A stretch of DNA of 32,000 bases from a bacterium (GCA_037444445.1 JBBIMK010000019.1:1-32000); one strand, 5' to 3'; positions 15,278 to 32,000 are shown, numbered from the stretch's first letter. Translations and numbers: made by a program. Notes: generated from the sequence alone by a model not told the origin.

Positions 15278-15760
15278 TCACGAGTATACTCTTATGCCTA
15301 TCCCGGTAATAAATTTTTTTAGAGTTTTCAGCCTTTCGCTTTTGCTCCTCTTTATCGCATTGATGAGTTGTTCAAAATTCCGCAGGTTTGCAGGTTGATT
15401 TATCACCTTTTTGATTTTATTTCCTTCATCCGGCAGGGCGAATCTGGATAAATCTATTTCCGCTTCCGATGCAGTTTTCACAATCCAACTTTCTAACATC
15501 GGACACAATACGATTAAGAGATTTTGCCTTTTCCCATCCTTGCATAGTTTTATTTCGTCTTTGCGCGCAATTAGTTGCATCTCTTTCAAATACCAGGGTT
15601 GGACAGATTCCGGGTCCTCATCTACCAATCCCTTTGAATTCGTGCTATTTCTTAAATGCTTGCACACATTTCCTTTACCGCCTGAATGTGTGATATTCTT
15701 TTTTCTCCCCTCAAGAGTTTTCACCAGGATTTTATCAGGCTTGCACTCCACAAATATCAT
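15278..15760 (-). CDS. Small Toprim/DUF4435-like protein, putative nuclease partner of the upstream ATPase
   Basis: Start set at ATG 15760, 4 nt after the ATPase stop; the track's 20-aa extension overlaps the ATPase gene. 'MIFVECKPD' (Glu5), 'GLVDEDPE' (D47-E48-D49) and 'LCPMLESWIV' fit the E...DxD...E-x-W layout of Toprim-type OLD/DUF4435/DUF4276 domains. AT-rich coding sequence. Confidence 0.55.
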   Translation of the reverse strand: MIFVECKPDKILVKTLEGRKKNITHSGGKGNVCKHLRNSTNSKGLVDEDPESVQPWYLKEMQLIARKDEIKLCKDGKRQNLLIVLCPMLESWIVKTASEAEIDLSRFALPDEGNKIKKVINQPANLRNFEQLINAIKRSKSERLKTLKKFITGIGIRVYS

Positions 15761-15764
15761 TCTA

Positions 15765-16751
15765 TCATGCTTTTTCCAAGAAACGCTCCAGGTTGAAAAA
15801 CACGCTGGAGTCCATCTCAAGTATTTCAGCCAACTCCTCTTGAACGAGAGGCCTCACCTTCGTTTGATAATCACCATAGTAAGTAATAAAAATCTTGATT
15901 TCATCTATGGGTGTTTTTTCTAATACCGCAAGTAGAAAATAGGGATTGTGAGTGGAAATAAAATATTGATTGGAATCATCTATGGCGATATTTTCTGCGA
16001 GATACTTCGTGTAATACGGGAAAGCGTGGGCTTCCGGCTCCTCAAAGATGATGATGGAATCCTTGTTCGTTTCCATGGCTACAAAATGAAAAACCACTCG
16101 CAGTAAAGTATCAGAAGCCAGTGAATAAGGATAAGCAATGAAAGTTCCATCACTCTCTTTCAGAACCTCAATTTTATTTTCTGTTTGTCTTAAGTTAATC
16201 CGAAACCCGTATTCGCGGAAGAAATCTGTTACCCGCTTCCTTAATTCTTTATGGGTTATAAGAATCGTCAGGAGATTTTCTCCCCCAGGTGGTAAAAGAT
16301 AATCTGCCTCCTGGCTTTTGAAACTATCCAACACTTGAAAACGATAGAATTTGAAAGGTAAAGGTTTACTGATAGGTTTTGTGGAAAGGATTAGACCGGC
16401 TTCATTACAGGAAATGTGAAAGAGGGGCTTTTGCCTGGCTTTATCTACTAAACTCAGATGGAATTGTCTATCTTTGTAACTGACTTCGCATCCATACTCA
16501 CCAGCACTGATTCTGATGTTAGAGACCAGATTGTTGTCATAAAACAGGTTCGTCATAGATTCAATTCGGATAAAATCCCTCAGATGCTTATACTCTTTAC
16601 CCTGAATATGTGGAAGTGAGAAGATGCCCACACTTTCCAGGATGTTAGATTTTCCTGCATTCGGTTCACCGATGAAAATGTTGACTCTTTTACAATCCAG
16701 TCTTAAATGTTTGATAGACTTAAAGTTCCTGACTTTTAGGGTGTTTATCAT
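15765..16751 (-). CDS. ABC/SMC-like ATPase of the AAA_15/AAA_21 (OLD/AriA-type) class
   Basis: 'LKVRNFKSIKHLRLDCKRVNIFIGEPNAGKSNILESVG' (Walker A), 'SLASDTLLRV' (signature-like), 'SIIIFEEPEAHAFP' (Walker B/D-loop), 'FISTHNPYF' (H-loop). AT-rich. Confidence 0.8.
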   Translation of the reverse strand: MINTLKVRNFKSIKHLRLDCKRVNIFIGEPNAGKSNILESVGIFSLPHIQGKEYKHLRDFIRIESMTNLFYDNNLVSNIRISAGEYGCEVSYKDRQFHLSLVDKARQKPLFHISCNEAGLILSTKPISKPLPFKFYRFQVLDSFKSQEADYLLPPGGENLLTILITHKELRKRVTDFFREYGFRINLRQTENKIEVLKESDGTFIAYPYSLASDTLLRVVFHFVAMETNKDSIIIFEEPEAHAFPYYTKYLAENIAIDDSNQYFISTHNPYFLLAVLEKTPIDEIKIFITYYGDYQTKVRPLVQEELAEILEMDSSVFFNLERFLEKA

Positions 16752-16761
16752 TTCTACACCA

Positions 16762-17868
16762 TTATTGAATGCCTTTCAGGTGGTCGCTTTCGTTCACGAG
16801 GCTTTTCACCCACTCTGTGATGTGGGCTTCCAGTTGAGAATTAGGCACCCGTTCCACCTTTTTGCCTTTGAAATAAAGGGTGGAGGTGTTCACTCCGCCG
16901 GCGATGCCCAGGTCTGCCATGCGGGATTCACCGGGACCATTGACTTCACACCCCATCACAGCGATGCGAACTAACTGCTCGGGCGCCTTGAGTTCCTTCA
17001 AGACCTTTTTCACCTGCTGGGACAGGAATTCTACATCCACCCTGAGCCTACCGCATCCGGGGCAGGCTATCAGGTCAAATCCCTTCTCCCGTAAGCCCAG
17101 GGCTTTCAGGATTTCAAACCCTGCCTGCACTTCTTCCACCGCCGGTCCTGCCAGAGAGACCCGGAGGGTATCTCCGATGCCTTCCTCTAAAAGGACGCCC
17201 AGCCCGATGGCAGATTTAATGATGGCTTCCATCCCGCTTCCCGCCTCTGTGACCCCCAGGTGAAAAGGGTAGGGGCACTGGCTTGCCATCATCCTGTAAG
17301 CCGCAATGGTTTCCATCACCCGGGAAGATTTCATAGAAATGACAATCTGGTCAAACCCTTCTTCTTCAAAATCCCGGATGTAGAACAACACGGTTTCCAC
17401 CATTGCCTTCGGAATCTGGTCGGCATACCGGATATAAAATTCCGGAGGAAGGGAACCCGCATTCACCCCGATGCGGATGGAAGCCCCTTTCTGCTTCGCT
17501 TCCCGAACAATCTGGCGGAGGATGGGACCGCTTTTCGTATTCCCGGGGTTCAGGCGGAGTTTATCTGCCCCCGCTTCCAGGGCCTTCAGGGCGATGCGGG
17601 GGTTAAAATGAATGTCCGCCACCAGGGGCACCTGAACTTCCTTTTTGAGAAGTTTCAAAAGGGAGGCATCCTCTTCTGTTGGAATAGCCACACGAAGAAT
17701 CTCTACCCCGGCCTGCTCTACCTGATGTGCTTCCTTCAGCATCTTTTCTGTATCTCGCAGGGAGTGCTTGAGCATGCTCTGGACGGCAATGGGATGATTC
17801 CCTCCCAGCATCACCCTGCCCACTTTTACCGGGATGGTTTTCCGCCGGTTCTTCACTTCACTTGTCAT
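16762..17868 (-). CDS. ispG: 4-hydroxy-3-methylbut-2-en-1-yl diphosphate synthase
   Basis: Start set at ATG 17868 ('MTSEVKNRRKTIPVKVGRVMLGGNHPIAVQSM'); the track's 80-aa extension overlaps rseP. 'PLVADIHF', 'LRLNPGN', 'IRIGVNAGSL', 'ACPGCGR', 'VMGCEVNGPGE' are canonical GcpE/IspG blocks. Confidence 0.95.
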   Translation of the reverse strand: MTSEVKNRRKTIPVKVGRVMLGGNHPIAVQSMLKHSLRDTEKMLKEAHQVEQAGVEILRVAIPTEEDASLLKLLKKEVQVPLVADIHFNPRIALKALEAGADKLRLNPGNTKSGPILRQIVREAKQKGASIRIGVNAGSLPPEFYIRYADQIPKAMVETVLFYIRDFEEEGFDQIVISMKSSRVMETIAAYRMMASQCPYPFHLGVTEAGSGMEAIIKSAIGLGVLLEEGIGDTLRVSLAGPAVEEVQAGFEILKALGLREKGFDLIACPGCGRLRVDVEFLSQQVKKVLKELKAPEQLVRIAVMGCEVNGPGESRMADLGIAGGVNTSTLYFKGKKVERVPNSQLEAHITEWVKSLVNESDHLKGIQ

Positions 17869-17870
17869 CC

Positions 17871-19175
17871 TCACCCTCGGATGCTCAAAATCCCCAGAAT
17901 GTCCCGATAGGTCACCCACAGCATCAGGAGAATCAGAAGGAAAAATCCAGCGATATGGAAGGCATTTTCCAGCGTGCGATTCACCGGCTTGCGTGCCACC
18001 GCAAAAAGAATGAGGAAGAACAGCCTGCCTCCATCCAGGGCAGGGAACGGAACCAGGTTCACAATCCCCAGCGTTACAGAAAGTAGAGCCATCTGAAACA
18101 GAAGCCATTTGAAGCCAGACTCCAGGGCTTGAAGCGTATACTTAAATATCCCTACCGGTCCCACAATCTCCGCTTCTTTACGACCGGTGAACAGCCCCTC
18201 GAAAAATTCCCAGAAACCCTGAAAAACGGAAACGAAACGCTCTCCAGCAATCTGAAGCCCCTGAATCAGTCCAACCGGCTCTCTCTCCATCTCAAATACC
18301 ATACCCGGGTGTTGCCTTTCTTCCATCTGTAGTGTAACCTGGAACGGATTCCCCTCCCTCATTCCTTCCAGCCGAATCTGTTTCGGCGGTTCCGCTTCGG
18401 AAATCTGGAGGGATGCCTGAAACAATTCGGGTGGCATTCCATCTATCCGTTGAATTGTATCTCCGACTCGGACACCCGCTTTCTCCGCGGGGCTGTGGGG
18501 CAAAATCTGAACCACTTTTCCAGAGATTTGTGCCGCCTCCGTAAGAAGAACGCCCAGACCCACCATCCGTTCCCCGGGTTGCCCTATCTCTCCCGGCGTC
18601 ACAGAAATCTCCCGGATCCCCTCCCGCCCTTCAACCTTCAACAGAAGAGGCTGGTTGCCTGCTGACTGCACCAAGCGAGACAATTCCATCCTGTTCAGTG
18701 TTTTCCCGTTGACACTCAGAATTAACTCCCCTGCCCCCAATCCCGCCTTCTCTGCAGGAGACCCACGCAGAACTCCCTGGATGAGTGGAATATGTCGTGG
18801 AATACCATAGCCCACTGCTTCCCCATAAAATAACAGGTAGCCAGCCAGTAAATTCATCATAGGACCGGCAACCAGAATGAGGCTCTTCTGCCAGGTTTTT
18901 TTGGTGGCATAACTATCGGGTTCCAAAAGGTTCGCTTCTTCTTCGTCCTCCAGCCCTTTGAGACGAACATATCCACCTAAAAGCAGAAGTCTTAACGACA
19001 GCACAGTGGATTTGAAGGGTTTCTTCACCAGAGGAGGTCCGAAGCCCACGCTAAATTCTTTCACCGCCACTCCCATCATTCTGGCTCCGACGAAATGCCC
19101 CCACTCATGGATGACTATCAACGCCCCAATGAGCAGAGCAATCATCAGGTAACCCAGGAAAGTTGCCAGGGTCAT
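17871..19175 (-). CDS. rseP: Site-2 (M50) zinc metalloprotease RseP with PDZ domains
   Basis: 'VIHEWGHFVGARMMGV' (HExxH), two PDZ-like blocks ('SPAEKAGL..GELILSVNG', 'SPAEKAGVRVGDTIQRIDG'), C-terminal 'NLVPFPALDGG'. Confidence 0.9.
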   Translation of the reverse strand: MTLATFLGYLMIALLIGALIVIHEWGHFVGARMMGVAVKEFSVGFGPPLVKKPFKSTVLSLRLLLLGGYVRLKGLEDEEEANLLEPDSYATKKTWQKSLILVAGPMMNLLAGYLLFYGEAVGYGIPRHIPLIQGVLRGSPAEKAGLGAGELILSVNGKTLNRMELSRLVQSAGNQPLLLKVEGREGIREISVTPGEIGQPGERMVGLGVLLTEAAQISGKVVQILPHSPAEKAGVRVGDTIQRIDGMPPELFQASLQISEAEPPKQIRLEGMREGNPFQVTLQMEERQHPGMVFEMEREPVGLIQGLQIAGERFVSVFQGFWEFFEGLFTGRKEAEIVGPVGIFKYTLQALESGFKWLLFQMALLSVTLGIVNLVPFPALDGGRLFFLILFAVARKPVNRTLENAFHIAGFFLLILLMLWVTYRDILGILSIRG

Positions 19176-24364: not shown

Positions 24365-24398
24365 AATCTCCCAATCTCAAAATCCCCCAAATCTCCCA
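24365..24398. repeat. 8-nt periodic array (CTCCCAAT/CTCAAAAT units) containing copy A of a 20-nt exact repeat
   Basis: 'aatctcccaatctcaaaatc' at 24365-24384 is identical to 29819-29838. The array continues 'ccccaaatctccca'. On the minus strand it reads GAGATTGG-type units starting about 13 nt after the Crp-like stop codon. Confidence 0.85.
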
Positions 24399-24410: not shown

Positions 24411-25022
24411 TTATTTCTCTCGCTCTTCGGCGATGAACTTCCGAAGCCCTTCCGGGTTCTGGACTACGATTTCGTGGCTATGGGATGGCAAATCCACCCA
24501 CCCATTCTCCTTGAACTCTTTGAGAATTCGGAGGGTTTGTTGCCAGGAAAGCCCACAGAAGCGGGACAAATAGGCTTTCGTCAGCCCGGATGGGCAATAC
24601 TCAGGAAAATCCTCAAAAAGGAGAAGAGCGGTGGCAATTCGCTTACAGCCCCTGCCAGGCTTCACACCGAGAATTTTCACCTGCTCCGTCAGGCGGACAA
24701 TCCTGCACGCCAGCCTTCTCAGAATCTCCCTCACCACAGCGGGTTCCTTCTCCAGAAGAAGAAAAAACTGGTCCCGGTTCAAGAACACCGCTTCCCCATT
24801 CCTTCTGGCTATCACTGTGGCAGAGCGAGCCTTCCCCGTGAGAAGCATTGGCCATTGCGGTGCTCCCGATGACGCCAGCCCCACGCCATTCCTGCCATTA
24901 CGTTCCTTCACCAAAGGAACCGGTGATATTACGCTCGGGCCGCCGCCGCAGGCGGTGAGAAGCACGATGAAGCCCAGCACCGCTATCAGCGGTGCGAAAC
25001 TCACGAACTTACGATTTGCCAC
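24411..25022 (-). CDS. Crp/Fnr-family-like protein lacking most of the cNMP-binding barrel, with a hydrophobic lipobox-like N-terminus
   Basis: GTG start at 25022, 9 nt after GGAGG. Residues ~55-203 match the distal part of Crp/Fnr regulators: 'LLTGKARSATVIARRNGEAVFLNRDQFFLLLEKEPAVVREILRRLACRIVRL' (last beta strands plus the long C-helix) and an HTH 'LTKAYLSRFCGLSWQQTLRILKEFKENGWV'. Residues 1-30 are 'MANRKFVSFAPLIAVLGFIVLLTACGGG'. Confidence 0.65.
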   Translation of the reverse strand: MANRKFVSFAPLIAVLGFIVLLTACGGGPSVISPVPLVKERNGRNGVGLASSGAPQWPMLLTGKARSATVIARRNGEAVFLNRDQFFLLLEKEPAVVREILRRLACRIVRLTEQVKILGVKPGRGCKRIATALLLFEDFPEYCPSGLTKAYLSRFCGLSWQQTLRILKEFKENGWVDLPSHSHEIVVQNPEGLRKFIAEEREK

Positions 25023-25395: not shown

Positions 25396-28300
25396 TTAGA
25401 TTTCCATCGCGTCGGCGAACACCAGCCGACGAGCCCTGGGCACCGGGGCGGCAGTCAACGGAGTCTCAGACGATGGAGCAGTTCCTTCCCCTGCTTTATC
25501 CGCCCTGAACCACTCATATTCCTTGATGACCAATCGGAAGGGCTGGGAACCCCGAGGGGCGGGCAGGATGACCTGACCCGTCCACACATTTTCTTTCTCT
25601 GGCTTCACGGGTGGAGGGGTGGATAGGATGCCCTCCCGGATGATTTCTCCGGGAGCGGTGGATTCAGGAGTGAATCTCTGGATGACTTTCGGCCGGAGTC
25701 TTACGGGTGGAGGGGATGGGCGGGATGGAGCGCCGAGGGTAAAGGTGGCATCGGGGACGGGAACCCAGCCCACATCTCCTTCCACACCCTCCTGCCTTGT
25801 CTCCACGGTCACCTCTACTTCGGAAGGACCTTTGCCCGCTGTCGTCTCCGTGTATGAAATCCCGGAAACCGTGACGGTGAGAACCTTCGGGTCGCCGGGG
25901 TCATAGGAGAGGGTAACAGTGCGGTGGGGTGCCAGCTGGGCAAAATCGGCAAGGACGACCCGGGAAAGATGGGCGTTCTCAATGGAATTGGGCTGATAAC
26001 GGGCAAGGGCAAGACGAACGAAGGGATAATAAGAATCTCCGGGGTCCAGTTCTATGTCAAAGAACCAGAGCCCTCTATCCGGGTCGTAATGAGGCTCGTA
26101 ACCCGCCACAGAAACCTGGTTGGACTCGGGATGGTCAGTTAATTCTTCCAGCGTTAAGCCGGATTGCTTTCTGGCGGTATTCTTAAAATGTGTCAGGGCT
26201 GGGCTGGCAAAAGAAGGGGTGGGGCTGGATTTCCATATAGGGTCCATCCCCCACTGGGTTACATAGGGCTTGAGGATGTCAGGAATTTCTGGCTCGGGTT
26301 GGGCAGGTCTGATGCCGGGCAGGATACCGCTGATGCCTCCACCCATGCCCACCGCTCGGCGGATGGTGGGTGCAACTCCCGGGAGGATGACGCCCAATAA
26401 CTCGCCGTCGCCGGAGGACCACCAGGGACGCTTCACATACACCCGAAGCCCTCCCCCGGTGCGTCGGCTCTCCCTTCCACCCGCCGTCTCCTTCTTCTCC
26501 CACCCAAAGGTGGGAATCACATACAGCACCCCGGGGGCAGAAGGACGAGCAGAGTTGGGTATATCTACCTCAAACTCCTCGCTCTCCCGGGTAATGTTCT
26601 TCGGGTCAGAAGTGATGGCAGGAGAGAAATACTCACGAAATCGGGTGCTGGCTACTGCCCTGTAATAAACCTTTCGGTATTTCGTATCACCGAATTCATG
26701 GCGAGGAGCCACCACAGGAAGCAGAGCGCTAACGACCAACGCAGGGGATATACCACGAATTGCTCCCGTGCCCAGCCCGTCTTCCCGTGGAGGGCTGTAG
26801 GAAGAGCCTTCTCCTTGCCCGAGGATGAGGGCTTTCTTCTCTTCGCTGTAGCGGACGCTTCCGCCGGCTACGGGAACCGCTTTTTCATCCAGTTGAACAG
26901 GGGCTTCAAACGCACGGGCGTTCCCGTATAGCCGGTCTTTATCCGGAATATTGGTAGGGCTGGCTGGCTCATCCACCGGCTCGCTCCACCGTGCCAGAAG
27001 GTCAATTTTCATCGTGCTCTTCCCATGAACATTCACCACCCCATCCAGGCCAGCGAAAGTATCACCGATATTCCTGCCTGGCTTTAATGCAGTAATTTTG
27101 GGGATGAGCAGAGGCTGTTGAACCGCATGAACCAGAGTCAGTTCACGATACGGGGTAAGGAGCCAGAGTTTCCCGATGGCACCCAGTTTTGTGAAGTCAG
27201 CCATGGCTAAGGCTTTGGGCTGAATCGCTCCCATATCCATCTTCGGCGCCGCATAAGAGGGCTGGCTTTCCAGCCTTGCCTCCACCTTCTCCTTCATCCA
27301 CTGCCACATTCCAAAGGTGTTCAAATCCTTTTCATCAAGATGGGCGCTGAGGCGAACCGTTGCCACTTCCGCTTTCGGCAGGTAGACCGTGAGGAGGCGG
27401 GAGGAGGCATTCCACCGGGGCTTTCCAGAGCCTTCCTCCACACGAATGCGGAATGGCAAAGCATCAGGCCAGTTTTCGGGAGTGTTCTGAAAGTCCACAT
27501 CTATCACCTCTCCCGCAGGGGCGCCGGGAAGGCCTTCAAAAGCAGCTTTCCGCGCCAGCGGGTCAGGCAGGTAAGGCAATACCAACTGCTCCTCGCTCTG
27601 AATGGCATAACGGAGGGGCTTGGACGGGTTTTCAGGGTTGGGAAATTCCACCTCCTGGAATCTGCCCACATCCTTCTGGGCAATCATCTGATAGGTGGCG
27701 GGGTCGCCTTTCATTCCGCCAGTGGTTTTATCATCAAATAACCCGTGAGTTTCAGCCATCAGTTGAGAGGTTTTCGGCGGGGCGATGTGACGCTCCGTGG
27801 CTTCACCCGTGGGAATGGCATCTTTTGCAGGGGAGTCGTTGAAGGTGCGAATCACCAATCGCTCTAACGATTCACCTTCTCTGGGCTTTTCACGCAGGAC
27901 GACGGGAGGAGTCTGGATGGGTTCAAAGCGCTGATAGGATTGGGCGGAAGAAGCCAGGGAAGCGTCCGCTTCCTCCAGGGAGAGGCTGTTACCTGCCAGG
28001 TCCACCGCCCTCGCCCTCAGGCGGTAAGAAACACCGAAGCGGAGGCGGGGAAGAGTGCCAGGCACAACGGGCGAAAAATTGACCTCCAGCCCGAAGGCAG
28101 TGACCGCTTTATTCTGTATCTCCCCAGGCGTGTCATCCGGTTTGATAGTCCTGCCCGGCCTGGGAACGCAGAGGCTCCAGCCATCCCATCGGAAGAGGGA
28201 TTCGTGAACAAACAGGTCAGAGTCGGTAGCGCCAGGCACCCGGGTTGCCGCTGAGGAAACCATCCCTTCATCCACGATTTCCACATCCTCGTTGATGGAA

Positions 28301-29730
28301 CTGAAGTGATACTTTCCCTTTCGCCAGCACAGGGAGTGCCATTGATTGGATTGAGAATCCCAGACATCAATCCGGTAACCCCTGACCAGGTCCTCGGCAT
28401 ATAAAGTGATGTCCTGAGAGGCCGAGAGGGCATCATTTCTCTGTTTTGCGGACTGGAAGGATTGATTGAGGCGGTCAGCGCGCCCATTTCTCACTATAGA
28501 AAGCCCGGCAGAGCGCATAGAGGGTAAGCCCTGCCTTTGAGGCGGAGGTGCCTCAGGGGCTCCCGAAGGCTGGTCCACTACGGGTGGAGCGTCGGCTTTC
28601 TTCAGCATCACCATAGCGGGAGCCTTGAAGGTGAGAACTCGTTGCAGGTTGCGGGCAAAGTCCATAACCTTCATTGCCGCCCCGTCCACATCCACCTGCA
28701 CCAGCTCATACATCTCCGGGTCGTTCAATTTCAGCATGCCATCCTGAATCTCGGGATTCTGTGGCCGTGGCTTCGCCAGAAACTTCCCCCCCTTGATTTC
28801 ATACGCAGTCCAGGGGGAAGAGTTGGTGGTAGAGGGCAATTGCGCCGCCCAGTTGGGGATTACTCTCAGAGTGGAAGAAGGGGGAATGGAAGAAGAATAG
28901 GGAATTTCCAGGTCCACCACCAGCCCCAGCATCCGTAACAACTCCGGATATTCGCCAAGGGACGAGAGTGCCTGGTGAAAATCTATCTCCGGGATTTGTG
29001 GGGGAATGGGCTTCATCAGCAGGGGTTGGTGGAAAAACTGAACCTGCAGGAAGTCCACGGGTGTGTTTCTAACCGGACTGAAGGGGATGGCTTTCCTGCC
29101 CTTGAATTCCTTCTCTAATTCCGAGGGCATAGGGCGCACTGAAGATACGGGCGCATCCACTCCCGGAGGCGCATGCCCCACAGAAGAGCGAAGTTGCGGT
29201 ATAGAATGCAGGACGGTGGGACCCAGCCCAACTGTGGCATCCTTCGGATTTATCAGGGTTTGAATCTCCGGCAACTCCGTAGGTGAAGAGATAGCCACAT
29301 TCTGATAGGTCTCTTTCAGGTATGAGAGGACATGCTTCACAGGGAAAGAATGGATTTTCCGCTCCGAATAATCCTCAAACTTGTGAGGGCGAACAAAGGT
29401 GGATTCATTGAACAGGGCTTTCCAGAGGCTGGAATCCGGGTCCGGACTCGTCCGGGGAGCGGGAATGGGAGCCCCGTTTCCGAATTGAACCGAGAACTGG
29501 ATGGATTTCAGAGTGGCGGGCAAATCCAGAAAATCCGGAAATTGAGACAGAGTCGGCTTCGGCAAGCCAATACTCGTATCCAGGCGAGGGGAAAGAAAGA
29601 CAGAAAGCCGAAGGCGCTGGTCGCCGCCAGAACCGGTGATGCCTGCAGGCAGAGCGGTCCAGAGGAGGAGTTGCTTCCTCTGCCCCGTTAGAGCCACAAC
29701 CGGTGGAAGTTTTGGAATCATCACGCCCAT
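25396..29730 (-). CDS. Very large hypothetical protein (1444 aa), no recognisable domain
   Basis: Uninterrupted 4.3-kb ORF. ATG at 29730 lies 8 nt after GGGGG. Host-like base composition. No signal peptide, TM segment, Walker A/B or metalloprotease motif seen. Pro/Gly/Ser-rich and appears beta-rich. Confidence 0.85.
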   Translation of the reverse strand: MGVMIPKLPPVVALTGQRKQLLLWTALPAGITGSGGDQRLRLSVFLSPRLDTSIGLPKPTLSQFPDFLDLPATLKSIQFSVQFGNGAPIPAPRTSPDPDSSLWKALFNESTFVRPHKFEDYSERKIHSFPVKHVLSYLKETYQNVAISSPTELPEIQTLINPKDATVGLGPTVLHSIPQLRSSVGHAPPGVDAPVSSVRPMPSELEKEFKGRKAIPFSPVRNTPVDFLQVQFFHQPLLMKPIPPQIPEIDFHQALSSLGEYPELLRMLGLVVDLEIPYSSSIPPSSTLRVIPNWAAQLPSTTNSSPWTAYEIKGGKFLAKPRPQNPEIQDGMLKLNDPEMYELVQVDVDGAAMKVMDFARNLQRVLTFKAPAMVMLKKADAPPVVDQPSGAPEAPPPQRQGLPSMRSAGLSIVRNGRADRLNQSFQSAKQRNDALSASQDITLYAEDLVRGYRIDVWDSQSNQWHSLCWRKGKYHFSSINEDVEIVDEGMVSSAATRVPGATDSDLFVHESLFRWDGWSLCVPRPGRTIKPDDTPGEIQNKAVTAFGLEVNFSPVVPGTLPRLRFGVSYRLRARAVDLAGNSLSLEEADASLASSAQSYQRFEPIQTPPVVLREKPREGESLERLVIRTFNDSPAKDAIPTGEATERHIAPPKTSQLMAETHGLFDDKTTGGMKGDPATYQMIAQKDVGRFQEVEFPNPENPSKPLRYAIQSEEQLVLPYLPDPLARKAAFEGLPGAPAGEVIDVDFQNTPENWPDALPFRIRVEEGSGKPRWNASSRLLTVYLPKAEVATVRLSAHLDEKDLNTFGMWQWMKEKVEARLESQPSYAAPKMDMGAIQPKALAMADFTKLGAIGKLWLLTPYRELTLVHAVQQPLLIPKITALKPGRNIGDTFAGLDGVVNVHGKSTMKIDLLARWSEPVDEPASPTNIPDKDRLYGNARAFEAPVQLDEKAVPVAGGSVRYSEEKKALILGQGEGSSYSPPREDGLGTGAIRGISPALVVSALLPVVAPRHEFGDTKYRKVYYRAVASTRFREYFSPAITSDPKNITRESEEFEVDIPNSARPSAPGVLYVIPTFGWEKKETAGGRESRRTGGGLRVYVKRPWWSSGDGELLGVILPGVAPTIRRAVGMGGGISGILPGIRPAQPEPEIPDILKPYVTQWGMDPIWKSSPTPSFASPALTHFKNTARKQSGLTLEELTDHPESNQVSVAGYEPHYDPDRGLWFFDIELDPGDSYYPFVRLALARYQPNSIENAHLSRVVLADFAQLAPHRTVTLSYDPGDPKVLTVTVSGISYTETTAGKGPSEVEVTVETRQEGVEGDVGWVPVPDATFTLGAPSRPSPPPVRLRPKVIQRFTPESTAPGEIIREGILSTPPPVKPEKENVWTGQVILPAPRGSQPFRLVIKEYEWFRADKAGEGTAPSSETPLTAAPVPRARRLVFADAMEI

Positions 29731-29785
29731 AATTTCAACCCCCTATTCTTTAGTTCGCAGTAGCCCTTTTTTCATTATTCGGATG

Positions 29786-29846
29786 TGAGATTGCAGATTT
29801 CATATTTCCCAATCCTCCAATCTCCCAATCTCAAAATCTCAAAATT
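29786..29846. repeat. Intergenic inverted repeat plus five tandem 8-nt units, containing copy B of the 20-nt exact repeat
   Basis: Five consecutive octamers ttcccaat/cctccaat/ctcccaat/ctcaaaat/ctcaaaat span 29806-29845. 'aatctcccaatctcaaaatc' lies at 29819-29838. 'tgagattg-c-agatt' (29786-29799) is complementary to 'aatct-cc-caatctca' (29819-29833), giving an 8+5 bp hairpin with a 19-nt loop. Confidence 0.85.
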
Positions 29847-32000
29847 TTATCCTCCTGCAAGGGCGAAGGCAGAGCAGTAAGAAAGCCAGTGCCTGTCATC
29901 CATCAGGTCGGCGAAGGAAGGTGGAGGTGAGCCGGCAAACTCCCTCCGAACCGTCAAATCCACACTCGTGCTGAAGAAGAGAATTTCAATCTCTACGGTG
30001 AGGGTGGCTTCGCCCCAGACTTTTTCCGGGGGACCTTCGGCGTAGGTGAGAGCCATATAGAATTCTACGGAGATGGTGATGATGCCGAGGACTTCCAGGG
30101 AGCCCCCACATCGCAGGTATCCGGTGAGCAAAGCGGAATCGTTCTCTAACTTGAAGTAGATGCCCGCCATGACATATATCCCACCGCTGGCAACCCCGAT
30201 GTCCAGCGACACGCTTCCGCCGAATTCCAGCGATGCCTCCAGGAGTTCCACGCCATCCAGCCCGAGGACAATCCCGAAGAAGCCTCCACCGCCGAACATG
30301 GAAACGGTGAGCAGGAAGGGATTGTGCCGGTCACAGAAATTGAACCGGAGGCGCGCGGGGTCGCCAGTGAACGGCAGGTTCAATTCCCCGAACAGGCTGA
30401 TATTCTGAAGGCTGAAAACGCCAAAAGCCACCGTCGGTATGCCGAGAGAATAACTCACCTTCACTCCCTTCGCGGTCACATCCAGGCTGGGCGGGTCGCT
30501 GAAACCTTTCGCCGGTATATACTTCTGTAACTCGTTGATGAATTTCAAAGGACCCTCAAATTCTACATCCTCTATGTCCGTATCTACATCTGGCTTCTTC
30601 CCGTCTCTGGCAAGGAACGAGAGTTTGTTGAATTTAACAATAATGAAATCCATCACGGGATGGAAAAGACGAACCTGAAAGTTCTTTAACTCACCCTTCA
30701 CTTCATACTGAATGTCCGTGCTGGCATCCAGTTTCTTCACGAGGGTGGAGGAAACCTTTAAGGTGGCATTCGTGCCGTTGAGTTTGGCAACAAAGATGCC
30801 CGTGGGGTCATCCTGCAACTTCGGCTCCCATTCCAGCGTGGCTTTAATTGCCTTCGGAATTTCCATCTCCTTAATCGTTTCGGTAATCAACCTCGGAACC
30901 CGCTTCAGGTCATTCTGGAAGTTGCTGACTGCCTGGATGATGTCCCAGAGGGTAATTCCGCCAAGAATTTTGGCATCCTTCAGAGCGCCCTGAAAGAACT
31001 CTTTCGGGTCGAAATCGCCAGCAAGAATTTTATTCAGGTCGCCCCCCACGGGTCCTGTCAGGCGTGATAGCCCTGAGATAGCCATATTCGGCGTCACCAG
31101 TCCACCCGCTTTGTCGCCATTGTTGTTCGCCCCGAAATCCAGCTGAAGGGCGTCCACCAGTTGAGCGAACACCTCACCCTTGTTGGAGTTGGAGGAAAAG
31201 CCATCCTTCAGGTAAGTATCGTGGAACTGGATTTTAGCCGTTTCAGCCGAGCCCAGCAACTGCTTTATGGCGGGGATGTCCACCCACGCTTGCTGGACGG
31301 CGGGATAGAACCAGGGCTGGTCAGCCTTCTCCAGAGTTTCACTGATGCCCTGCTGGTTAGCGGGAAGGGTGGAAATGACGGCTCCGAAGGAGATAAAAGA
31401 AGTATTCAGGGTGGTGTCGCCCGCCTTCTTACTTTCGGCGAAAGCCACTTTTTGACCGCTCATAGAGCGTTTTCGTTTTTCGTCATCCACATTCAGAGTG
31501 TTATAAAACTGAACGATTTGGCTCGCCTGGGTTTTATTCTTTGACCGGGAATTCTCCACGAAAATGAGAGGGATTGTAAATTCAGAGACTTGCCCGTCGC
31601 CATCTCTTGCCACCATATGGAAGAGGAAGGGCTTTCCGCCCACGGAAGGCCAGAAGGCAGATTGCCCCAGGTTTGTGGGATGGGGCGGGAACCCACTCAC
31701 GACCTCCACCCCGCTTGCTATGGGGTTATCCAGATTCGGCGTAACGAGTGTGGTGATGCGGACAGTCTGGAAAGGCATCTTCCTGCCATCATCCGGATGC
31801 CCCGGTGCGGGATAGTCTTTCACCGGCTGACGCACCACGACGAACATCCTCTGGCGAAGATAGGCGGCGATGCCCCCTTCTGGTGCAGGCTGAAATTTCC
31901 GCTCCGTAATCTTAACCAGAGAGGCTTTATGCCCGAAGGGAAAGAGGTATCCTTTATAGACCACCCTGACATAATGGTCTCTTCCCATCGTGGCTTGGTG
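29847..32000 (-). CDS. Large hypothetical protein (at least 713 aa, probably 5'-truncated by the window edge) with a Gly-rich amphipathic C-terminal module
   Basis: ORF is open from the TAA at 29847-29849 to the window end. The first Met is at 31988, with no stop in the remaining 12 nt. The product starts abruptly with 'RDHYVRVVYKGYLFPFGHKASLVKITERKF'. No domain recognised. Confidence 0.8.
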   Translation of the reverse strand, partial: HQATMGRDHYVRVVYKGYLFPFGHKASLVKITERKFQPAPEGGIAAYLRQRMFVVVRQPVKDYPAPGHPDDGRKMPFQTVRITTLVTPNLDNPIASGVEVVSGFPPHPTNLGQSAFWPSVGGKPFLFHMVARDGDGQVSEFTIPLIFVENSRSKNKTQASQIVQFYNTLNVDDEKRKRSMSGQKVAFAESKKAGDTTLNTSFISFGAVISTLPANQQGISETLEKADQPWFYPAVQQAWVDIPAIKQLLGSAETAKIQFHDTYLKDGFSSNSNKGEVFAQLVDALQLDFGANNNGDKAGGLVTPNMAISGLSRLTGPVGGDLNKILAGDFDPKEFFQGALKDAKILGGITLWDIIQAVSNFQNDLKRVPRLITETIKEMEIPKAIKATLEWEPKLQDDPTGIFVAKLNGTNATLKVSSTLVKKLDASTDIQYEVKGELKNFQVRLFHPVMDFIIVKFNKLSFLARDGKKPDVDTDIEDVEFEGPLKFINELQKYIPAKGFSDPPSLDVTAKGVKVSYSLGIPTVAFGVFSLQNISLFGELNLPFTGDPARLRFNFCDRHNPFLLTVSMFGGGGFFGIVLGLDGVELLEASLEFGGSVSLDIGVASGGIYVMAGIYFKLENDSALLTGYLRCGGSLEVLGIITISVEFYMALTYAEGPPEKVWGEATLTVEIEILFFSTSVDLTVRREFAGSPPPSFADLMDDRHWLSYCSAFALAGG

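Follow-up and report, generated by a model that had tools for sequence, protein, structure and literature searches.

What do two adjacent giant genes do when their products match no known family? The question is raised by a 32,000-nucleotide (nt) stretch of bacterial DNA (GCA_037444445.1, JBBIMK010000019.1:1-32000; the whole stretch is hereafter called the window), at one end of which an earlier note, made from the sequence alone, had pointed out an operon-like pair of giant minus-strand genes. We refer to the upstream gene as A and the downstream gene as B. The A-B pair is real, large and widespread, and its function is what we infer here. Our favoured reading, which we find plausible without calling it probable, is that A and B form a hetero-oligomeric complex that folds in the cytoplasm, is exported via a twin-arginine translocation (Tat) signal on A, and acts at the envelope or cell surface.

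A and B form a strictly paired two-gene module

The listing of open reading frames (ORFs) and translation of the window agree with the layout given in the note, with two minus-strand ORFs 116 nt apart and the upstream one open at the window edge. Gene B (25396-29730) is complete, starts with ATG and encodes 1444 amino acids (aa) without a signal peptide. Gene A runs from 29847 to beyond 32000, and the window holds its C-terminal 717 codons and stop (29847-32000). The longest listed ORF for A is 29847-31988, and translation carried on to base 32000 (HQATMGRDHYV...) meets no upstream stop, so the gene is open at the edge. The closest relative, JGI contig L001, carries an A homologue whose residues 750-1455 are 81% identical to the window fragment and, directly behind it, a B homologue 78% identical to window B. 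The L001 A protein is 1456 aa as called, with a further 29-codon leader upstream of the called GTG, which places about 770 residues of window A beyond position 32000. By this comparison, the full gene A product would be about 1480 aa, with its N-terminal ~770 aa, including the expected leader, lying off the window.

To the operon-like arrangement it proposed, the note had added the suggestion that gene order be compared across homologues. This order proved strict: each of the 79 loci whose sequence extends upstream of B has an A homologue as the immediate 5' neighbour of B on the same strand, with a median gap across the family of 15 nt (eight further loci are contigs beginning inside or at B and are not counted in the 79). 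The spacer of the window (29731-29846) is unusually long by this standard. When the other ORFs in 85 loci were clustered, no family extended beyond six loci, all of them close relatives of one another; Pfam scans of the lineage-specific neighbour genes gave nothing informative, and even the window and L001 have different flanking genes. Because there is no conserved third gene on either side, the system is the A-B pair itself and does not extend past A. The expectation in the note that the operon continues past 32000 thus holds for gene A only.

The two genes also share a history. The similarity matrices of A and B are correlated (Pearson 0.83), 43 of 59 loci have one and the same nearest neighbour by A and by B, and nearest neighbours cross phyla, as for Bradyrhizobium with bins of Chloroflexota and Actinomycetota. 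This co-divergence, together with the cross-phylum neighbours, indicates a unit that is co-inherited and horizontally mobile. Judged from gene order and sequence divergence, A-B is a complete, self-contained, horizontally mobile two-gene module.

The module is common. A word-indexed search returned at least 564 homologues of B, all unnamed or 'hypothetical', and a scan of one genome per GTDB species, for which conserved C-terminal B blocks served as search patterns, found B encoded at no fewer than 584 places. For A, phmmer run exhaustively with the fragment in the window matched 4185 representatives of 50%-identity clusters, 2429 of them at E<=1e-30. Among the matches listed in the species scan, carriers of B include Symbiobacteriaceae, Armatimonadota, Aminicenantes, Chloroflexota, Geobacter, Bradyrhizobium, Burkholderiaceae, Streptomyces and Saccharothrix (Actinomycetota), Paenibacillus, Verrucomicrobiota and one Nitrososphaeraceae bin; the phyla with the module include Bacillota, Actinomycetota, Pseudomonadota, Acidobacteriota, Chloroflexota, Armatimonadota and others. 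It is also found on megaplasmids or chromids of the Bacillus cereus group (including B. bombysepticus), Streptomyces, Rhizobium and Cupriavidus metallidurans CH34. Cultured and tractable carriers therefore exist (C. metallidurans CH34, Bacillus cereus group strains with megaplasmids, Paenibacillus, Streptomyces, Bradyrhizobium and Geobacter), so A-B function is directly testable.

We considered and rejected an origin in phages or prophages, as none of 50,697 phage records contained the module and 1 of 2.9 million viral contigs did. A recent import of A-B into the window genome is likewise not supported: the GC content, the GC content at third codon positions and the codon usage of A and B lie inside the range of the neighbouring window genes, in line with the remark in the note that base composition resembles the surrounding housekeeping genes. 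The different GC skew of A and B is probably a consequence of their Pro-rich composition.

Some loci differ locally from this two-gene pattern. At L031, L037, L040 and L074 (Kapaibacteria, Balneolaceae and one alphaproteobacterial bin), two more genes without Pfam matches lie beside the pair, one of ~370-400 aa upstream (downstream in L037) and one of ~650-710 aa directly downstream, which may be a lineage-specific extension of the module. Hydrolase genes just upstream of A vary by lineage: a patatin in L001 (4212-5009), a weak trypsin-like peptidase in Saccharothrix (L003, 5935-6924), and a papain-like cysteine protease plus DUF1906 in Bacillus bombysepticus (L086, 2936-3685 and 4200-4628). 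A role for these non-conserved hydrolases in processing or release is conceivable. A complete A-B pair is also present in a Nitrososphaeraceae archaeon bin (L066, JBIOZE010000092.1), with pairs of Acidobacteria and Chthoniobacterales as its nearest relatives; this represents either a cross-domain transfer or a binning error.

Neither protein matches a known family

The note could name no family for either protein, and broader searches led to the same result. Pfam and NCBIfam held no family for either window protein, PHROGs and PADLOC none for B or for full-length L001 A, and PDB sequences gave nothing for A or B in phmmer searches with single sequences or in hmmsearch with family profiles. Simple motif scans of the window proteins found no Walker A or HExxH motif, again as the note had said, and no thioester CxEQ or NTPase, nuclease or protease motif. 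The note had said that confident matches to Tc toxins, extracellular contractile injection systems (eCIS), type VI secretion systems (T6SS), phage baseplates, adhesins or polymorphic toxins would count against it. None of these families gave a confident match, and this outcome, like the strict gene order, favours the note. An assignment to eCIS, T6SS or phage tails is also at odds with the lack of conserved neighbours and of any PHROGs match; matches in BFVD were weak. Profile-profile comparison of the A and B families revealed no shared domain, indicating that A and B are not paralogues.

Searches of the full-text literature also turned up no description of the A-B family. Across four libraries of hidden Markov models, PDB sequences and folds, BFVD and the literature, the A-B pair is undescribed and fits no known kind of system. 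It amounts to ~3000 residues of strongly conserved protein in one two-gene unit, covered by no domain database or solved structure.

Many A homologues carry a Tat-type leader and B homologues do not

To look for targeting signals, we scored N-termini for two arginines followed by at least 12 uncharged hydrophobic residues. This test for a Tat-type leader was passed by 95 of 206 complete A homologues and by none of 115 B homologues, which begin at M..QTI.WTALPNG. Many A homologues start with M.R.RLNLxALR and continue ~25 residues later with [ST]RRx[ML]LGLAGxAA..P, so that the leader consists of a twin-arginine motif and a short, mildly hydrophobic h-region. It is seen on long and short A architectures; in the short form of Aminicenantes the Tat-like signal comes directly (..SRRKFLSYAGILGATPV..). 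No Sec-type signal was found at the N-termini of A or B homologues.

The note had stated that neither protein has a signal peptide. For A this claim is not supported, as the N-terminus of window A lies beyond 32000 and the 81% identical relative carries a Tat-type leader. The true start of L001 A, upstream of the called GTG, reads MRRNRLNLSGLRKNRLSQASGRWAFTRREVLGLAGIAAAG (leader at L001:5445-5531), with the twin-arginine motif in the segment FTRREVLGLAGIAAAG. Window A is very likely to begin with this leader too.

A conserved element in the n-region of a Tat signal, as in A, is unusual. A motif like M.R.RLNLxALR is kept in those A proteins of Bacillus, Bradyrhizobium and Actinomycetota that are without the arginine pair and h-region.

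Protein A ends in an amphipathic beta-meander

The core of A comprises ~1000 aa (residues 406-1456 of L001 A). Saccharothrix, Halalkalibacter and others have core-only A proteins, and many lineages add an N-terminal domain of ~350 aa. We modelled a core-only homologue, P0222, with AlphaFold2 (model m3ee8b77762e6; strands assigned by DSSP), which gave a confident and almost entirely beta structure with a predicted local distance difference test score (pLDDT) of 85.2 and a predicted template modelling score (pTM) of 0.72. Window A corresponds to residues 333-1018 of this model.

The window fragment opens in a family block, WRHxATMGRDxYVRVVYxGYLFPFGH..., and the part of it within the window, HxATMGRDxYVRVVYxGYLFPFGHxASLxKxTERKF (31893-32000, minus strand, as for all features of A and B below), belongs to the most conserved block of A, with invariant R, D, G, P and R columns in the family alignment (A2). 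In the model this block forms long beta-strands (E328-370 of P0222). An insertion hotspot follows at approximately residues 365-380 of the fragment (30861-30908), where homologue matches break at query positions ~370-380. Judging by BLAST gaps, inserts here are mostly ~100-300 aa and reach ~560 aa in the longest; some are helical, and some A homologues give PF04513 and PF01442 matches.

Residues 505-688 of the fragment (29937-30488) are predicted to form a glycine-rich beta-meander of strands 10-17 residues long with tight turns between them. The meander is amphipathic family-wide, with a mean hydropathy of ~+2 to +4 on one face and ~-0.2 to -2 on the other. The protein closes with a conserved tail, FADxM..W..YCxAFA (29850-29915), a predicted helix at residues 1001-1017 of the model. 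The last residue is an alanine in 101 of 120 homologues, and most of those shown end in ...YCxAFA(A).

Foldseek comparison of the A model with the PDB showed a weak likeness to outer-membrane barrels and large lipid-binding sheets, including SlpA, LptD, PapC, FimD, BamA, SprA, OmpT (probability 0.98, TM-score 0.30), porins, MTP and ApoB. The best TM-score to a porin was 0.30, and against BFVD the matches were to phage J or tail-fibre proteins and porin-like proteins, also weak (TM-scores <=0.3). Bacteria without an outer membrane (Bacillus, Paenibacillus, Streptomyces and Saccharothrix) have kept the C-terminal domain of A. Because the meander is equally conserved there, A cannot be an ordinary outer-membrane protein of its producer.

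Protein B is predicted to be a string of beta-sandwiches

The AlphaFold model of B residues 245-1444, also confident (pLDDT 84.9, pTM 0.69), consists of many beta-sandwich domains with a few short helices and four disordered linkers rich in Pro and Gly, one of which, a Pro-rich segment at residues 371-395 (28546-28620), has pLDDT <50 at model residues 127-151. In Foldseek searches of the PDB, B matched only multi-beta-sandwich ectodomains, that is, strings of FN3, immunoglobulin (Ig) or macroglobulin domains. They include the IGF1R/insulin-receptor ectodomain at probability 1.0, the alpha2-macroglobulin family and the Chlamydomonas mastigoneme, with TM-scores of only ~0.1. At the level of the predicted fold, B is a string of FN3- or macroglobulin-like beta-sandwiches. 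The note had seen no Ig- or adhesin-type repeats in the pair, which stands at the sequence level and fails at the fold level, where the B model is largely beta-sandwich.

The B core of ~1200 aa is not a repeat array, and 43 columns are invariant in an alignment of 93 homologues (A1), including H252, D455, R470, D577, H868, D1015, T1016, E1110, D1163 and R1244 in full-length numbering. All four B blocks quoted in the note as family-conserved are in the consensus of this alignment. From the N-terminus, the conserved features begin with a domain at about residues 18-155 (29266-29679; WTALPNG...LRLSVFVSPRL), which lies outside the structure model and is delimited by the A1 consensus, the N-termini of homologues and a separate BLAST segment. 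A beta-sandwich region at 27985-28392 contains two conserved blocks, DLVRGYRIDVWD... (28309-28392) and PRLRFGxxYRLRARAVDLAGNS (27985-28050), with the invariant D455, R470 and D577 and strands in the model. The C-terminal half of the core (25933-27141) holds the invariant H868, D1015, T1016, E1110, D1163 and R1244 and the invariant blocks LTLVHAVQQPL (27109-27141), HEFGDTKYR (26668-26700), RPWWSSGDGELLGV (26389-26430), VTQWGMDPIW (26233-26262) and YYPFVRLALARYQP... (25933-26031). The extreme C-terminus, RRLVFADAMEI (25399-25431), is conserved as well, and most homologues have its consensus, RRLVYADxLxL, at their end or close to it.

Some B homologues are fused to pAdhesive_15, fn3, an inserted Laminin_G_3, Big_3_5, PG_binding_1 or, in a single homologue, a phospholipase D domain (PLDc). 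These accessory domains are of types typical of extracellular proteins. Fibrillar adhesins, which have a stalk of repeated beta-sandwich domains and an adhesive tip, resemble B in its chain of FN3- or Ig-like sandwiches and in the pAdhesive_15, Laminin_G_3, Big_3_5 and PG_binding_1 additions of a few homologues. They differ in that the B core is non-repetitive and highly conserved and not a variable repeat array. Inspection of N-termini and motif scans detected no signal peptide on B and no sortase, type I secretion or autotransporter element for export or anchoring.

A proposed model of co-export and its rivals

We hypothesized that A takes B along through the Tat pathway. Under this hypothesis, A and B would fold and associate in the cytoplasm, and the Tat pathway would carry the complex across the cytoplasmic membrane on the leader of A; B, which has no signal, would travel as a 'hitchhiker'. 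Once outside, the C-terminal amphipathic meander of A would contact a membrane or the envelope surface, and the rod of beta-sandwiches in B could serve as an exposed binding or effector arm, which in some lineages would carry lectin, Ig-like, adhesive, peptidoglycan-binding or phospholipase D domains. The role may be adhesion, envelope protection or attack on other cells. This reading is suggested by the strict pairing and tight spacing of the genes, the Tat-type leader on one partner only, the all-beta, ectodomain-like architectures, the extracellular-type domains on B and the amphipathic sheet on A.

Tat export of a signal-less partner together with a signal-bearing one is an established mechanism, and this hitchhiker route is known for hydrogenase, dimethyl sulfoxide reductase and PaoABC (PMC10924467, PMC4273604). 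The mechanism that it implies, folding and assembly in the cytoplasm before export, would be common to the hitchhikers and A-B. The hitchhiker pairs, such as hydrogenase-2 HybO/HybC, DmsA/DmsB, PaoABC and Streptomyces MelC1/MelC2, share with A-B the adjacency of the genes and, where A has its Tat-type leader, a signal on one partner only; signal-less B adjoins A at every informative locus. Unlike them, A and B are each ~150 kDa, all-beta and without a recognisable cofactor-binding family or motif; moreover, the A leader carries an additional conserved motif, RLNLxALR, at its N-terminus, and about half of the A proteins are leaderless. Members of the established group are either redox enzymes with cofactors or small pairs of a chaperone and an enzyme, reaching ~150 kDa at most.

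Several observations weigh against co-export. At ~300 kDa, an A-B complex would exceed in size every Tat cargo known to us. Scores of A leaders against the NCBIfam model TIGR01409 (TAT_signal_seq) are borderline, ranging from 14.6 to 17.0 against a cut-off of 16.7 that one of eight passes, and the N-terminus of A is out of sight in the window itself. Leaderless A proteins occur in Bacillus, Paenibacillus, Bradyrhizobium, Geobacter, Streptomyces and Saccharothrix, making up about half of the A family; in these lineages the proteins may act inside the cell or leave it by another route. A-B fusion proteins did not turn up. The fold matches, at TM-scores of 0.08-0.3, indicate general beta architecture only and not homology. 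A bolder version of the hypothesis, in which the ~300-kDa complex is exported whole on the leader of A and represents an unrecognised class of surface machine, adhesive or membrane-attacking and spread horizontally through most bacterial phyla, is doubtful. Should Tat co-export of A-B prove true, the size limit known for the pathway would be extended and a new kind of cell-surface system defined; should it fail, there would still be a large protein family with strict pairing to explain.

The meander of A would also suit a binary beta-pore-forming toxin directed against other cells, be they competitors, predators or invertebrate hosts, with the hairpins of A inserting in the target membrane and B as binding or enzymatic partner, a reading that we consider unlikely. 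A does have long amphipathic hairpins with GxxxGxxxG-like runs (FGGGGFFGIVLG) and weak porin-like fold matches, its conservation in bacteria lacking an outer membrane means that the meander cannot serve that membrane in the producer, and one B homologue bears phospholipase D. The module is patchy across phyla and, like Tc (ABC) and binary Bacillus toxins, it is very large and multi-subunit, lacks classical signals and is plasmid-borne in insect-associated Bacillus, here on megaplasmids of the Bacillus cereus group including B. bombysepticus. However, the clustered loci contain no immunity gene or other conserved partner; A-B have no RHS/YD repeats, no TcA, TcB, SpvB or Binary_toxB domain and no other toxin family match in Pfam or NCBIfam; and there is no toxin structure among the fold matches of A or B, the 50 best of which include neither Tc nor RHS nor teneurin structures. 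Known beta-pore formers, moreover, use one or two hairpins per subunit and not a preformed sheet of at least 10 strands. If A were instead a barrel pore in the outer membrane and B its cargo, in the manner of two-partner secretion (TpsB/TpsA) or chaperone-usher systems, one could account for the two-gene unit, the weakly barrel-like antiparallel sheet of A with its matches to LptD, the PapC and FimD ushers, BamA, SprA and porins, and the long beta-rich candidate exoprotein B; one database record even labels an A homologue a putative outer-membrane channel. Yet the module, including the C-terminal domain of A, occurs in Bacillus, Paenibacillus, Streptomyces and Saccharothrix, and no POTRA, ShlB, Usher or Haemagg_act (two-partner secretion) match was found in Pfam. 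These two points make us disfavour the reading, to which we give very little credence. Outer-membrane proteins and their cargo need Sec signals, which neither A nor B has; most A homologues end in AFA and not in a terminal aromatic residue; and TM-scores do not exceed 0.3.

The leaderless half of the A family and the constant lack of a signal on B would be expected of a complex that stays in the cytoplasm, as a new phage-defence or conflict system or a large scaffold, with the arginine-pair segment as a lineage-specific membrane tether. A patchy cross-phylum spread that includes plasmids is typical of accessory conflict systems, and a low-GC AAA_15/AbiEii-like gene lies elsewhere in the window. 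We regard this reading as improbable, since neither protein has a PADLOC match or an NTPase, nuclease or protease motif, the window locus has housekeeping genes around it and is in no defence island, and the build is all-beta and FN3- or macroglobulin-like, with fused domains (peptidoglycan-binding, lectin and adhesive) of a typically extracellular kind. Very unlikely, in our view, is an envelope-protection device resembling bacterial alpha2-macroglobulins (ECAM/YfhM with PbpC), with B as trap or shield and A as anchor. The top fold matches of B, over ~900-1230 alignment columns, are mainly to alpha2-macroglobulin, A2ML1, C3, TEP1 and E. coli ECAM, making this the best-ranked fold class, and bacterial alpha2-macroglobulins are giant, patchily distributed multi-beta-sandwich proteins encoded in two-gene units with a fixed partner, pbpC. 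The TM-scores are only 0.07-0.11, however, and B has no CxEQ thioester motif, no helical thioester domain (the model has short helices only) and no A2M or macroglobulin-domain match in Pfam; its partner A is unrelated to PbpC and is not a penicillin-binding protein.

Genes and repeats around the pair

The A-B spacer contains a G-rich ribosome-binding site (29740-29745) and 4.5 tandem copies of the octamer GAGATTKK (29811-29846, minus strand); Rfam, promoter and terminator scans of the A-B region gave nothing above background. A repeat scan found a second copy of the octamer repeat, a local genome repeat, at 24365-24386 on the minus strand, 25 nt past the stop of a Crp-like gene. An exact 20-nt stretch is common to the two sites, where none is expected by chance, and both lie at or within ~25 nt 3' of the stops of two minus-strand genes, A and the Crp-like gene. 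The note had the pair bracketed by this repeat. The repeat is real, and from its positions it brackets B and the Crp-like gene, not A and B. There is no further copy in the window and none in L001, and because it is absent from that closest relative we rejected the repeat as a component of the module.

The Crp-family regulator gene (24411-25022) is the first gene 3' of B, followed by the housekeeping genes rpsB, tsf, pyrH, frr, uppS, cdsA, rseP, ispG and nusA. Its product has a clear HTH_Crp_2 domain and no Pfam cNMP-binding match at E<=0.001, and its N-terminal part (residues 62-116) gave weak PADLOC matches to PycTIR and TIR effector models (E ~1e-3). The note had remarked that this gene follows the pair, an arrangement that the relatives do not share: it adjoins A-B in no other locus. 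The window RpsB is at most 66% identical to other clusters except two near-identical ones, with its best named matches in thermophilic Bacillota (~64-66%), and the window organism is an uncultured lineage.

Inside the housekeeping cluster, between ispG and a glycosyltransferase gene, lies an AAA_15/AAA_21 (AbiEii-like) ATPase gene (15765-16751, with an adjacent ORF at 15278-15820), whose GC content of 0.39, against ~0.53 for the cluster, gives it the look of a small defence-type insertion of foreign origin. The longest ORFs of ispG (16762-18108) and rseP (17871-19175) overlap by 238 nt; the GcpE Pfam match begins at residue 92, indicating that the true ispG start is probably further downstream.

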